From Eledone cirrhosa (Eukaryota), in assembly GCA_964016885.1 (NCBI GenBank), contig OZ024749.1, positions 32,426,001-32,490,000 on the forward strand: a stretch of DNA of 64,000 nt, in the 5' to 3' direction. The notes beneath the pieces are model-generated. The model saw only the letters and a list, made by a program, of their open reading frames with translations. It did no database searches and was not told the origin of the DNA. The translations under genes were made by a program, and so were the position numbers. Positions 5,053 through 24,714 of the stretch are shown here, piece after piece. How positions within the stretch are numbered: the first letter of the stretch is position 1; the number at the start of each line of letters is the position of its first letter.

Positions 5053-5320
5053 AATTTTCTTTTTATTTGCCACCAGGGCATCAAAAAGTGGGACAAGTAC
5101 AATGGGGGGAGTTTACATAACAAGGCGTCCTCAATAAGGAGGAGGCAATAACAAAATATAAAAATAAAATAAAATATAACAAAATAAAATTTATAACAAA
5201 ATCCTCAATAGAGAGGAGGCGCATTGGGGGGTCGCACACACTCCCGAAAAAAAGTGTGCAACGCTTCTCCTCAGGAGCACAGAGAGGGGATGCTCCCTTG
5301 GTCTTTCATCTTCCTCTATA
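5053..5320 (-). mobile_element. Tx1 subfamily A 3' UTR fragment
   Basis: Matches 17953-18220; degenerate GATA to the left, (ATAG)n to the right. Confidence 0.85.
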
Positions 5321-5338
5321 ATAGATAGATAGATAGAT

Positions 5339-5688
5339 ATGTTTCTTTATTAGCCACAGGGGCACAAAAGAAGGGGACAAATACAAAGAGGGAAGTTTAC
5401 ATACAATAAAAACGTGTAAAATGTTATCACAAATGCAATTTAAAAAATTAGTCGATTTTCCCCAATAGGGGAGACAGTTCATATGGGTAACACATACCCC
5501 CGAAGAAAAAATGTGAAACCCTCATCTCCAGGAGTACGAAGAGTTTGTACTCCTTTCCTCTCCTCCTCCTTTTCCTTAACCTACAGGCTGATATAGAGAG
5601 AAGGCCCATTCACTTGGGCCATTCTCGCCACTTTCACCCACCTTTCATAAAACTTGCTGGGGTACAGCACTTCTCTCTCCATCCTGAT
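5339..5688 (-). mobile_element. Tx1 subfamily B 3' fragment
   Basis: Matches 16663-17010; (ATAG)n to the left, degenerate ATAG/ACAG tract to the right. Confidence 0.88.
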
Positions 5689-5892
5689 AGAGAAATAAAT
5701 AAATAGATAGACAGACAGACAAATAGATAGATATATTTCTTTCCTTTCCTTTTTTTTTTCTTTCTTTCTTTCTTATATATATATATATATATATATATAT
5801 ATATATATATATATATATATATATATATATATAGAGAGAGAGAGAGAGAGAGAGAGAGAGAGAGAGAGAGAGAGAGAGAGAGAGAGAGAGAG

Positions 5893-6110
5893 AGAGAAAA
5901 AGAGATGAAATCGAAAATGCAACTGGAGTCTTATTTTTTTTTTAAATATATATATTTATTTGGTTCCTTTACCAAATAAATATATATATTTTTTTTAAAA
6001 ATAAGACTCCAGTTGCATTTTCGATTTCATCTCTTTTTCTTTATACTTTCACTCGTGTAGGACACCTCGGTTATTTTTCATTTTGTAAAAAAAAACCTCA
6101 CTTTCTAATA
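5893..6110. repeat. Asymmetric foldback between (AG)n and (TA)n
   Basis: ~70-bp inverted arms around TCCTTT, with a ~70-nt tail. Confidence 0.7.
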
Positions 6111-21200: not shown

Positions 21201-21655
21201 TAGTCCCAGCGTGCATCTAGGATACCATTCCAGTCCCCCACTAATAGCAAGGAGCGGGACGTCCCTAGAAAAGTCTCCAGACGATGGAAGAAGTCCGGCC
21301 GCATTGACCCGAAAGGGCCGTAGGCGGCTACCAACCTAAACGCTCCGCCTTTACCACTGCCAAGGTCCAGAACCACTAGTCGACCCTCCGGGTCCAAATG
21401 TACCATCTGTGTTGCGAGACCCAGATGTTTTTGCAGCAGAACGACAACTCCACCCCCACCTCCGGGCTGACAGAGAGATGCGTGTATCTCAAAGTCATCA
21501 AAGGTGGGGGCCAGCTGTCGCACGTTGCTGATCCGGGCCTCGCAAATAACCATCACATCTATACGTTGTGACCTGAGGTCATTTAGAAGCATTGCTTGCT
21601 TCCAAGTTGAGCCCAGGCCACGCGCATTTAAACAGCCTACTCTTAGCATAGCCAT
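18218..21655 (-). CDS. ORF2: APE endonuclease, reverse transcriptase and C-terminal zinc finger
   Basis: Uninterrupted ORF (likely ATG at 21655). APE motifs: GCLNARGL, VGDWN, YLDRFLV, YSDHK. RT motifs: SPGLDGLP, FRPITLLN, LDQSKAFDRV, IRQGCPLS, AYADDVT. C-terminal CPRC..ETVAHALVHC. Confidence 0.95.
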   Translation of the reverse strand: MAMLRVGCLNARGLGSTWKQAMLLNDLRSQRIDVMVICEARISNVRQLAPTFDDFEIHASLCQPGGGGGVVVLLQKHLGLATQMVHLDPEGRLVVLDLGSGKGGAFRLVAAYGPFGSMRPDFFHRLETFLGTSRSLLLVGDWNGILDARWDYVGACPDREGCNSLKGLIGRFDLADRYRLDFPTAPTWTWANRSGSSRSYLDRFLVRIKDKDFLSCPKMRMVGYSDHKLVTCMVNLDRTHRQGPGYWKLNLSLPASRAYRNRISTLVKERLTGAIVNSRWWVSLKREIRVVSIEFSKVLAADRNRKERELIDRVEEAIRSGDVARVLASRTALSQFFDAKHEGCVVRSKIRALGNEGTKAVSWARVTEANNGTKSTIRSLRDLDGRAILEPKQMCEAFQRHFARLFGRGGEPVGNVDFGPYLDGLPRLSDREAKSCEEPISAAEIEDVLSQCGKRKSPGLDGLPYELYLAMPDLFPDLLEAVYCNWQQNGRIPCTVTKGVVTLVRKDENKGDEISNFRPITLLNTELQILAKVLAKRLALVVGNLVGDAQTCAIPSRSIHDNLHLMRYIIERVGNEPGFGGALINLDQSKAFDRVDHGYLDAVLAAAGFGPVFRGWITAMHSSRICSRVKVNGYLSEPFKIARSIRQGCPLSSLLYVLTLEPLLRKLELLQGIPLEPGLRKAVSAYADDVTVMVSTASEIEAVGTLLEEYEKFTGAKLNRDKSIGLQLGTWRGRPMPSDGVVGRWTEGPVKLLGVWFGPDLQVEKNWAEVTNRVFALTQKWASCKLSLKGRAEVANTYIASVIYYRLTVVPCPRETLTKMERALFQFLWKRRAPMVRRSICCQHPSKGGLGMPWLMMRKHALRLRHLYVFLTGQPVWASFVRRTFPRFVSLTELQSWVKQRPRKLGTWHTECAQALTALWQADPVISGDSTATFYRGLVRSRCDDALGEALDMEEDELASLFGRTFSPGPMDNFQKSLAWQCYRGALPVRERLYRHGRPGRDPAKKICPRCVCDEETVAHALVHCSGVADLWGYVEQLLSRVGPIRLTTESIVMIKPPLPFKDEAEAVFLCVIAMAKEVVWWTRLKGLRSGTFLSGQQLVRFFRYHFGRRIRMEREVLHPSRFYETWVKVARMARVNGPSLYIRL

Positions 21656-21679
21656 GTTGGTGGTGAAGAGAAAAGGCAC

Positions 21680-22702
21680 TTACCTCTCTGCGTCCCGGGT
21701 ATCGGGCTGCACAATTTCCATTAGGGTGGGGGATGGGTTGTTGGTTGGGGTGGTGGTTTGTGGAAGTGTGGGGGCATCAGTGTGTTGTGTGGTTGGGGAG
21801 CTTGGAGTTGTGTGGGTGTTTGGGGAGGGGGTGGGATAGTTTTTTAGGAGGACGCGGTTAATGGGCCCGACGCAGGAGGGACCCACGTCCTCTTTAAAAT
21901 TGTTTTTTAAAGTTTTATAGGTGTCCTGTGGGGCCTTAATCATTTTGAGGTGGGGGAAATCCCCTGCCTGGGTGAAGTTAGGCCCTTGTGTTTTTATTAG
22001 ATTGTTGTTGTACACAATGTTTAACAGTTTTTTGTTTCTTGTGTTTATGTATGTGTATGCATGTTTTTGTTTTTGTGTGGTGTTTTTTGTTTGCTGTTGT
22101 TGTGAGCTCTTTTGTGTTGGTGTCAGTGTTATGTTTTGGGGAGGGGGTTTTTTCATTTGTGTGTCTGAGGTGTGTTTTCTTTTTTTTCTTTTGATTGTGT
22201 GGAAGTGCTCCTCCTCGTCTGACGACGAACTAGGGTCATCTTCCGCGTTGGAGGGGAGGGGTATATTTTCGGGTTGTGTTTGCGGTACGGGTGTTTTGGA
22301 AATTGTTTTTGTTTTTTGAGTGGAGGGGATGGGTTGGACATTGTTTTGTTTTGGTTTGAGCTGTGGTGGTTGTTTTTGTAGTGGTAGTTGTGGTGATTGT
22401 GTTGGTTGTGCAGTTGTTGGTGGTGTAGGCAGGATTGGGGTTTTCTTATTAAGTTGGGGACAGACAGCCCTCAGGTGACCTCTGGTTCCGCAGAGGTAAC
22501 ACGAGGGCCGTCTACCCTCAACGGTAATGTTGATGAAGGTTAGATCATCCAGTATGACGCGTTCAGGGATCTGGGCGATCCTTTCGGGCCTCATTTGAAC
22601 TACAAGTTCGAGGCTCGTTCCACTGAACGCGTCACCCGATGCCTTTCCCATGGACACCAGCATGTCATCCTCCAGGTCCAGAAAACCTGTCAAAACCCAC
22701 CA
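21680..22702 (-). CDS. ORF1 (5'-truncated) with CCHC zinc knuckle
   Basis: VEGRRPSCYLCGTRGHLRAVCP followed by a Pro/Gln/Thr/Lys-rich region. The N-terminus of the 374-aa track ORF is microsatellite read-through. Confidence 0.85.
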   Translation of the reverse strand, partial: WWVLTGFLDLEDDMLVSMGKASGDAFSGTSLELVVQMRPERIAQIPERVILDDLTFINITVEGRRPSCYLCGTRGHLRAVCPQLNKKTPILPTPPTTAQPTQSPQLPLQKQPPQLKPKQNNVQPIPSTQKTKTISKTPVPQTQPENIPLPSNAEDDPSSSSDEEEHFHTIKRKKRKHTSDTQMKKPPPQNITLTPTQKSSQQQQTKNTTQKQKHAYTYINTRNKKLLNIVYNNNLIKTQGPNFTQAGDFPHLKMIKAPQDTYKTLKNNFKEDVGPSCVGPINRVLLKNYPTPSPNTHTTPSSPTTQHTDAPTLPQTTTPTNNPSPTLMEIVQPDTRDAER

Positions 22703-24714
22703 TAGATAGATAGATAGATAGATAGATAGATAGACAGAGAGAGATGGAGAGAGAGATATAGATAGATGATATACATATATATATTTAATTATATGAAGAT
22801 ACATATATGTGTGTATATATATATATATATATATATATATATATGTGTGTGTGTATATATATATATATGTGTGTGTATGTTTATGTATATATAAATATAT
22901 ATGTGTGTGCGTGTATGTTTATGTATATATATATATATATATATATATACATAAACATACACACATATATATATACATAAACATACACACACACACACAA
23001 TATATTTATATATACATAAACATACACACACACACATATATATATACACACACACATATATATATATATATATACATAAACTTACACACACACATATATA
23101 TATATATATATATATATATATATATATATATATATATATATATATATATATATATATATATATATATATATATATATATATATACGTGCACTGTATTATA
23201 TACTACTCACGTTCCTGTTATACAACAAAGGGATCTTTAGAAATCGATGGGATCCGATGTATCACTCCCGCCTTTTAATGAGTGACCCTTAATATTTCAA
23301 ACAGTTCTCGTTAGGAATTTTTAAAAAAAGTGGCCGTGTTAAGCATTAATCACACACAGTACATACAGTCATTACCTACCATCTTTAATTAATTTGTATA
23401 TATATATATATATATATATATATATATATATATATATATATATAGTTTTATATATATATATATATATATATATATATATATATATATATATAGTTATATA
23501 TATATATATATATATATATATATATATATATATATATATATATATATATATATATATAACTATATATATATATATATATATATATACATATATATATATA
23601 TATATAACTATATATATTATATATATATATATATATATATATAACTATATATATATATATAACTATATATATATATATATATATATATATATATATATAT
23701 ATATATATATATATATATATATATATATAACTATATATATATATATAACCGTATATATATAACTATATATATATATGTGTGTGTGTGTGTGTGTATGTAT
23801 ATATGTGTTTATATATATATATATATGTGTGTATATATATACATATATATATATGTGTGTGTATATATATGTATATATATATATACATATATACATACAT
23901 ATATATGTATATATATATGTATATAGATACATATATATATATATATATATATATATATATATATATATATACGCATATATATATACATATATATATACAC
24001 ATGTATATACACACAAACATACATATACATATATATACACACACATATATATATATATATGTGTGTGTGCGTGTGTGTGTGTGTACATATATATATATGA
24101 ATATATATATGTATATATATTTTTTTTGAGGGGGTGGGGGTTCAAACGAATATACAGGCACACCACACGTGCACACCTACACATACGCCCATATAATCAG
24201 TAGATTAACTTGTTTAAGCACACAAACGTATTACAACGTAATAAGCTATATTAACTGGATAACATATCTGTGATACTTCACTAAAGACCTCTAGAAGAAA
24301 AGAAATGAAAGGGAACATATATATATGTGTGTGTGGGTGTGTGTGGGTGTGTGTGCATACATACATATGTATATATGAATATATATATACATATGCATCG
24401 TGTATACATTCATTTAATTTATTAATTTATTGATATTTTATTTGAGTGACCCGAATCTTCCTGGTCGTTCTTTTTCGGCTGCGCGGGTGATTTTAGACAT
24501 GATCTCTATGTGTTGGTATTTTAACGATAGTTATAGCTCTGATTTTTCCAAATTATTGAGCCCTCTGCCACATATATCGGATATTGTTTATCGTGATTTC
24601 GTGGGCTGATATTCCGATTCTCGATTATTCTACTGAGCACACAACACACACACAGAAACAAAATGGCGTGGGACAGAACAAAGGAGAGGCACAGAAACAA
24701 AGAAAGGAATCCCC

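Follow-up and report, generated by a model that had tools for sequence, protein, structure and literature searches.

A LINE family of probable Tx1 type found in (GATA)n microsatellites in a 64-kb window of Eledone cirrhosa

Several long interspersed nuclear elements (LINEs) that carry an endonuclease of the apurinic/apyrimidinic type (APE) reside in microsatellites (papers are cited throughout for the part of their text that was available). The targets on record for Tx1 families are TC, TTC, TTCC and TTTC repeats (PMC4494074); microsatellite targets of the ACAY, AC, TC, TTC and TAA types have been listed elsewhere (PMC3812793), and Togen has a TG target (PMC4640811). The preliminary description of the locus considered here had stated that the Tx1 clade includes such elements, namely Kibi on TC and Koshi on TTC, and two of these papers confirm it (PMC4494074, PMC3812793). 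I report here on a LINE family, likely of the Tx1 group, of which five copies (c1 to c5), belonging to two subfamilies A and B, were found by self-BLAST, junction extraction and inspection of the letters at 4.5-8 kb and 16.3-23.3 kb in a 64-kb stretch of the Eledone cirrhosa genome (contig OZ024749.1, positions 32,426,001 to 32,490,000, forward strand; hereafter the window, from whose first letter all positions are counted), each copy lying between GATA-type repeats.

All five copies have the same 3' terminus, and the 5' truncation point differs in each (Table 1). Identity among copies of the same subfamily is 94-96%. Subfamilies A and B are 84% identical over the shared start of the open reading frame 2 (ORF2)/untranslated region (UTR) segment, and the middles of their 3' UTRs are distinct, as first described. 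Copy c4, which belongs to B, is 87% identical to A in amino-acid sequence over 319 codons, with a synonymous divergence (dS) of 0.61, a nonsynonymous divergence (dN) of 0.065 and a dN/dS of 0.11. Judged from these sequences, A and B appear to be two lineages under purifying selection, both of which keep one target. The copies form two tandem stacks, A+B at 5.0-5.7 kb and B+A at 16.7-22.7 kb, each within a single tract, exactly as had been claimed.

On the element strand, the 3' end of all five copies reads AATAAA(A)GAAA, then CA, TA or AT, and then directly TATC, and no poly(A) was found at any of these five extracted ends. The sense strand is thus always of the ATCT type, including in c3, whose strand is opposite to that of the other copies. 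On the 5' side, TATCTAT occurs within 25 nt upstream of the junction in all five copies, for a background of 692 in 114,396 positions (0.6%), while TATCTATC lies within 20 nt of the junction in four of the five (background 266/114,406, 0.23%) and within 12 nt in three (183/114,422, 0.16%); these background counts include the junction tracts themselves. The window contains six AGAT runs of three units or more, five of them at junctions of these copies; no element adjoins the sixth, which lies at 2685. Seven other dispersed repeats were taken as a control; their 52 matches, from overlapping seeds and with ends placed by BLAST, have 104 ends, and the motif was present at 1 of these. Junction extraction and background counts therefore uphold the earlier claim that GATA-type repeats stand at both junctions of all five copies. 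Only eight tracts serve the ten junctions: the 5' tract of c1 is also the 3' tract of c2, and that of c4 is also the 3' tract of c5. This leaves three 5' junctions (c2, c3 and c5) that do not depend on a neighbour's 3' end. For these three the joint probability is about 2e-7, in a test picked post hoc that assumes independence. Beyond the 5' tract of c2, positions 5734-5745 read AAAGAAATA-TATC on the element strand, the same as the 3' end of c4, which may be an extremely short copy or a chance occurrence inside a (TTTC)n tract.

Whether the repeat is target DNA or an element-encoded tail can be read from the target-site duplications (TSDs). An exact 11-bp duplication, TATCTATTATA on the element strand, is present on both flanks of c1, where it extends from the repeat into non-repeat DNA; this 11-mer occurs only twice in the 64 kb, at 5043 and 5317. 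Copy c3 has the 9-bp TATCTATCT on both flanks, and the DNA beyond is unrelated. Since the base preceding the duplicate differs between the two flanks in both cases, the TSDs are at most 11 and 9 bp long. Both TSDs begin with TATC, so that the TATC at the 3' junctions of c1 and c3 is accounted for in full as duplicated target, and the repeat is target DNA, more than a tail. No TSD is readable in c2 and c4, and in c5 it is masked by the perfect repeat. Varied 5' truncation, a constant 3' end and exact TSDs in two of five copies are the marks of an APE-type LINE. The TSDs of c1 and c3 are an addition to the preliminary description, as is a distant sixth element, element C.

Table 1. Positions in the window of the LINE copies, their reading frames, duplications and flanking tracts
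Feature	Position	Strand	Content	Basis
c1	5054-5316	-	subfamily A, only 3' UTR	self-BLAST, junction extraction
c1 TSD, 3' side	5043..5053	-	TATCTATTATA
c1 TSD, 5' side	5317..5339	-	TSD is 5317-5327, inside the GATA tract common to the c2 3' end
c2	5340-5688	-	subfamily B, ORF2 end and 3' UTR	self-BLAST, junction extraction
Degenerate GATA tract, 5' junction of c2	5686..5733	-	12 units, 81% matches
TATC tract, 5' junction of c3	6578..6590	+	final 9 nt are the TSD
c3	6591-6806	+	subfamily B, only 3' UTR
c3 TSD, 3' side	6807..6815	+	TATCTATCT
GATA tract, 3' junction of c4	16649..16663	-
c4	16664-17864	-	subfamily B, 3' 1.2 kb (ORF2 and UTR), open frame
Perfect (GATA)22	17866..17953	-	joins the 5' junction of c4 to the 3' junction of c5
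c5	17954-22701	-	subfamily A, 4.75 kb, 5' truncation inside ORF1
ORF2 (P0001), in c5	18218..21655	-	1145 aa, uninterrupted; APE endonuclease, reverse transcriptase, C-terminal zinc finger
ORF1 remnant, in c5	21680..22702	-	340 codons, one CCHC knuckle and a low-complexity region
GATA tract, 5' truncation junction of c5	22702..22733	-	8 perfect units, then degenerate
Element C	31234..31891	-	decayed 3' fragment, 31% aa identity to A	tblastn

The coding capacity of the family is best seen in c5. Its ORF2 contains the Pfam domains PF03372 (APE), PF00078 (reverse transcriptase, RT) and PF13966 (zf-RVT), and aligns with human L1 ORF2p at E 6e-48. The APE residues N10, E39, Y112, D141, N143, D202, D226 and H227, which I take to have catalytic roles, align with the human L1 endonuclease. 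The ORF1 remnant has a knuckle of the form CX2CX4HX4C that falls under the Pfam cut-off (zf-CCHC, E 0.026); the same region has matches in the ORF1 of relatives with E values of 1e-6 to 1e-7, and one relative passes the cut-off. An ORF1 with a CCHC zinc knuckle is a feature of the Tx1 clade. Because the remnant begins well inside ORF1 (the knuckle starts at codon 67 in c5 and at residue 252 in a relative of full length), and because one contig of sequencing run X4 extends 556 letters past 22701, the GATA at 22702 marks a truncation junction and not the natural 5' end.

These observations are probably best explained by an APE-RT LINE family, likely of the Tx1 group, that copies itself into (GATA)n in one orientation, its own endonuclease nicking the GATA strand. 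That GATA is targeted at all, whether by cutting or by pairing, is very probable. The APE would nick the GATA-reading strand at a constant phase, the freed 3'-OH would prime reverse transcription on an RNA ending just past AATAAA, and the TSD would arise from another nick 9-11 nt downstream. Repeat would be left on both sides of the insertion, where a second copy could stack, and since each insertion leaves it there the tract would stay a target for further copies; tandem stacking around the TSD has been noted for the Tx1-mobilised SINEU-3 (PMC4494074). In favour of targeting, two subfamilies at dS 0.61 and dN/dS 0.11 share one target, and the orientation is held in the plus-strand copy. The GATA targeting put forward in the preliminary description draws support from the TATC at the start of the TSDs and from the three 5' junctions that are not shared, and the word 'specific' in it rests on five copies. 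By the criterion of PMC4494074, more than 20% of flanks with the same target, the figure in the window is five copies of five.

Protein searches gave one relative at 69% identity, then three fragments (62-67%), some 45 proteins in the 37-45% range and a wide field of matches at 25-30%. The genome contigs collection yielded 45 loci, 38 of them from one record set, G001 (85 matches), which is filed as a bacterial metagenome-assembled genome and evidently carries animal-like DNA. The G001 relatives (L072-L107, L111, L116; also L117-L128), with 40-43% ORF2 identity, form head-to-tail arrays of intact full-length units with a period of 6.4-6.85 kb, in which several subfamilies are mixed without any spacer repeat and 5'-truncated units are fused directly to the preceding 3' end. 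This suggests self-targeting or serial insertion. The 71 loci from a metagenome scan include no close relative of the family, the full-length ones being below about 35% identity, and the ESM Atlas holds APE-RT clusters without taxa. The 3'-end patterns, exact or degenerate, had no match in the genome contigs or viral contigs collections, and alignment found no relative in the viral contigs.

To place the family, elements lying at RNA genes served as anchors. Among 20 loci scanned, A-rich tails of L004 and L008 adjoin a U2 gene cut near its 5' end, and L113 adjoins a cut 5S gene; I take the elements at the U2 site to be Keno-like and that at the 5S site to be Mutsu-like. The 3' side of L108 (3036-3199, 9961-10137) and of L017 (9202-9356) adjoins a U1 small nuclear RNA gene that lacks its first part; the cut in U1 falls at nearly the same point in the two loci, which sit on separate tree branches and are candidate U1-targeting families. 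All five loci were taken as Tx1-type anchors in RT trees of 77 and 46 rows, out of 225 available, the rows excluding the named Tx1L, Kibi and Koshi and vertebrate L1. In the best tree (46 rows) the window lineage groups with the elements at U2, 5S and U1 sites in a set of 30 rows with support 100/97, and in the 77-row tree the grouping has a Shimodaira-Hasegawa-like approximate likelihood ratio (SH-aLRT) of 99. The window lineage and the G001 sister lineage make a 10-row clade at 100/100. A tree in which the lineage is forced to branch outside the remaining animal rows is 26 log units worse and is not rejected (p-AU 0.072, approximately unbiased test). The Tx1-type assignment made in the preliminary description thus agrees with the domain layout and with the best RT tree; as the outside placement survives (p-AU 0.07) and the trees contain neither named Tx1 elements nor vertebrate L1, membership is no more than likely.

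Element C has 45-49% identity to two further proteins in the databases. The terminus at its 3' end can be aligned with those of A and B, after which (TGT)8 follows at 31209-31232; this hints at a second microsatellite target. On its 5' side it abuts a 37-codon stretch that may resemble an RTE endonuclease, although neither Pfam nor the ORF2 of a relative yielded a significant match to it. Either the 5' junction of element C was lost by deletion, or its repeat is merely a tail.

Contigs from 4 of 24 sequencing runs were aligned to c5. In run X1, 27,976 contigs fall on it, with a summed depth of about 160,000-810,000 over the 3' two-thirds of ORF2 and of 13,000-31,000 over most of ORF1, a profile that fits a high-copy, 5'-truncated family, contig depth being no copy number. 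Among the 24 loose contig ends listed of 2,030, the one at 18802 passes into a diverged relative and then into AGACATAGATAG, a GATA-like sequence that gives weak support to targeting, and most others look like diverged relatives or A-rich chance matches.

A number of these data weigh against specific cutting at GATA. The whole sample consists of five copies in one 64-kb window, and the weakest case among them, c2, has a degenerate tract, a nearest TATCTAT that ends 14 nt from the junction and no recognisable TSD. No matching repeat was found at the 5' side of element C, where the repeat is at the 3' side only. Microsatellites were absent from the junctions and outer edges of the G001 arrays (0 of 8 edges in 12 regions, edges being defined by library coverage and four regions reaching a contig end); these being the nearest full-length relatives, GATA targeting is no common trait of the lineage. 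Among the 24 loose ends listed, the one at 20715 (36 nt, from a single contig) lacks GATA. Finally, the APE loop that links the T and S anchors and probes the minor groove (PMC1950540) is 9 residues long in A and in the relative at 65% identity, as against 11 in the array elements; A's loop is thus L1-like, versus 11 residues in Tx1L and TRAS1.

This last point bears on the strongest alternative, that pairing and not cutting selects the site: the RNA would end in UAUC repeats, by read-through of the flank or by slippage, an endonuclease of loose specificity would nick many sites, and reverse transcription would begin only at a nicked GATA strand that anneals to the RNA end. The genomic pattern would be the same with another determinant, and cutting and pairing may both act. 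The L1-length hairpin loop of the APE speaks for pairing, as do the five copies without poly(A) in which the repeat begins in the same phase directly after the terminus, and the terminus common to A, B and C, given that C nevertheless bears a different repeat. On the other hand, the repeat on the 3' side amounts to less than two units in c1 and slightly more than two in c3, where an added tail is unnecessary because the TSD accounts for all of it, and specific APEs are documented in the Tx1 group, Tx1L-EN nicking nearly exclusively its own target in vitro (PMC1950540). I consider targeting by pairing a serious though minority explanation. Absence of any targeting, with TATC an element-encoded tail and the 5' repeats due to stacking or to chance in a microsatellite-rich genome, could draw on the two copies of five whose 5' tract is a neighbour's 3' tract, on the sister lineage that stacks head to tail without repeat, and on the 3'-only repeat of element C. 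It is improbable, since c2, c3 and c5 carry a 5' repeat with no recognisable element upstream, the TSD of c1 is TATC derived from the target, and control ends had the motif once in 104. That one or two insertions were multiplied by local duplication or assembly error, as the long palindromes (6111-6557, 5763-6177) and tandem repeats of the region might suggest, is very hard to reconcile with five distinct 5' truncation points, distinct outer flanks and 4-6% divergence within subfamilies.

The family can be compared with several described systems. Like Kibi and Koshi it is an APE-type LINE in a microsatellite; its five copies lie on GATA, with TATC at all 3' junctions, and not on (TC)n, (TTC)n, (TTCC)n or (TTTC)n. 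Kibi and Koshi are teleost elements, whereas the host here is an invertebrate whose repeat landscape looks like that of an octopus. Waldo, in (ACAY)n, and Mino, in (AC)n, belong to the R1 clade, so that clade and repeat unit both differ, the window ORF2 resembling L1/Tx1. They share with the window family an APE-type machinery and a mixed-sequence microsatellite target (PMC3812793). The crocodilian Tx1-1_Crp and Tx1-2_AMi, which prefer (TTCC)n or (TTTC)n, also have a tetranucleotide microsatellite as target (PMC4494074); theirs are pure pyrimidine/purine strands, whereas GATA is mixed and AT-rich. L004, L008 and L113 fall in the same best-tree group and have the same domain order, at 27-29% amino-acid identity and with an A-rich tail abutting the cut RNA gene, in contrast to the window family, which has no poly(A). 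The G001 sister lineage has the same two-ORF layout and differs by its arrays devoid of microsatellites and its 11- instead of 9-residue APE loop.

No GATA target is named in the available text of PMC8869645, PMC3747384, PMC8967140 and PMC10294476, and no GATA-targeting LINE was found in the searchable literature; the supplements and tree figure of PMC4494074, with their per-family units, may hold a GATA-type target. Relative to that literature the target unit GATA would be new; microsatellite-targeting Tx1 families, tetranucleotide targets included, are already published. In O. vulgaris, 80 L1-Tx1 families (56 Mb), 13 of them recently active, have been counted, with no target described in the accessible text (PMC13282606), and given that count the window family is possibly in that library, unnamed.

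The window holds other features. Near-perfect long palindromes lie between (TA)n tracts (5763-6177, 6111-6557, 1875-2093 and 24978-25292) and are either elements resembling miniature inverted-repeat transposable elements or assembly fold-backs. An abundant repeat of about 190 bp resembling a short interspersed nuclear element, one of the control repeats, gave 13 merged matches, partly tandem (842-1037, 7113-7277, 35672-35872, 46983-47552 and others). Homogeneous satellite arrays at 61156-63996 and 43829-44914 have periods near 44 and 61 bp and about 95% identity. A small hairpin before AATAAA, predicted in all five folded LINE termini (z +0.3 to -2.9), was rejected as a conserved feature, its one compensatory pair being equalled in 338 of 500 shuffles.

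A broader and more tentative scenario, which I hold to be doubtful, is that a host-restricted, Tx1-like radiation has split microsatellites among its members, A and B taking (GATA)n, C, whose RNA terminus is the same, taking (AAC/GTT)n, and the sister lineage stacking on itself in 6.4-6.8 kb arrays. Targeting would then be independent of that of Kibi and Koshi, the switch would track the 9- versus 11-residue APE loop, and insertions would renew GATA targets. If so, these elements would form a natural series showing how APE specificity changes. The known mechanism of retrotransposition is unchanged by the finding. If GATA targeting holds, a mixed-sequence, AT-rich tetranucleotide would join the known Tx1-like targets, in an apparently high-copy family whose intact ORF2 is available for biochemistry, and an APE that nicks (GATA)n, compared with close relatives whose targets differ, would allow the determinants of specificity to be tested. 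For the host, GATA microsatellite markers may often adjoin LINE sequence.

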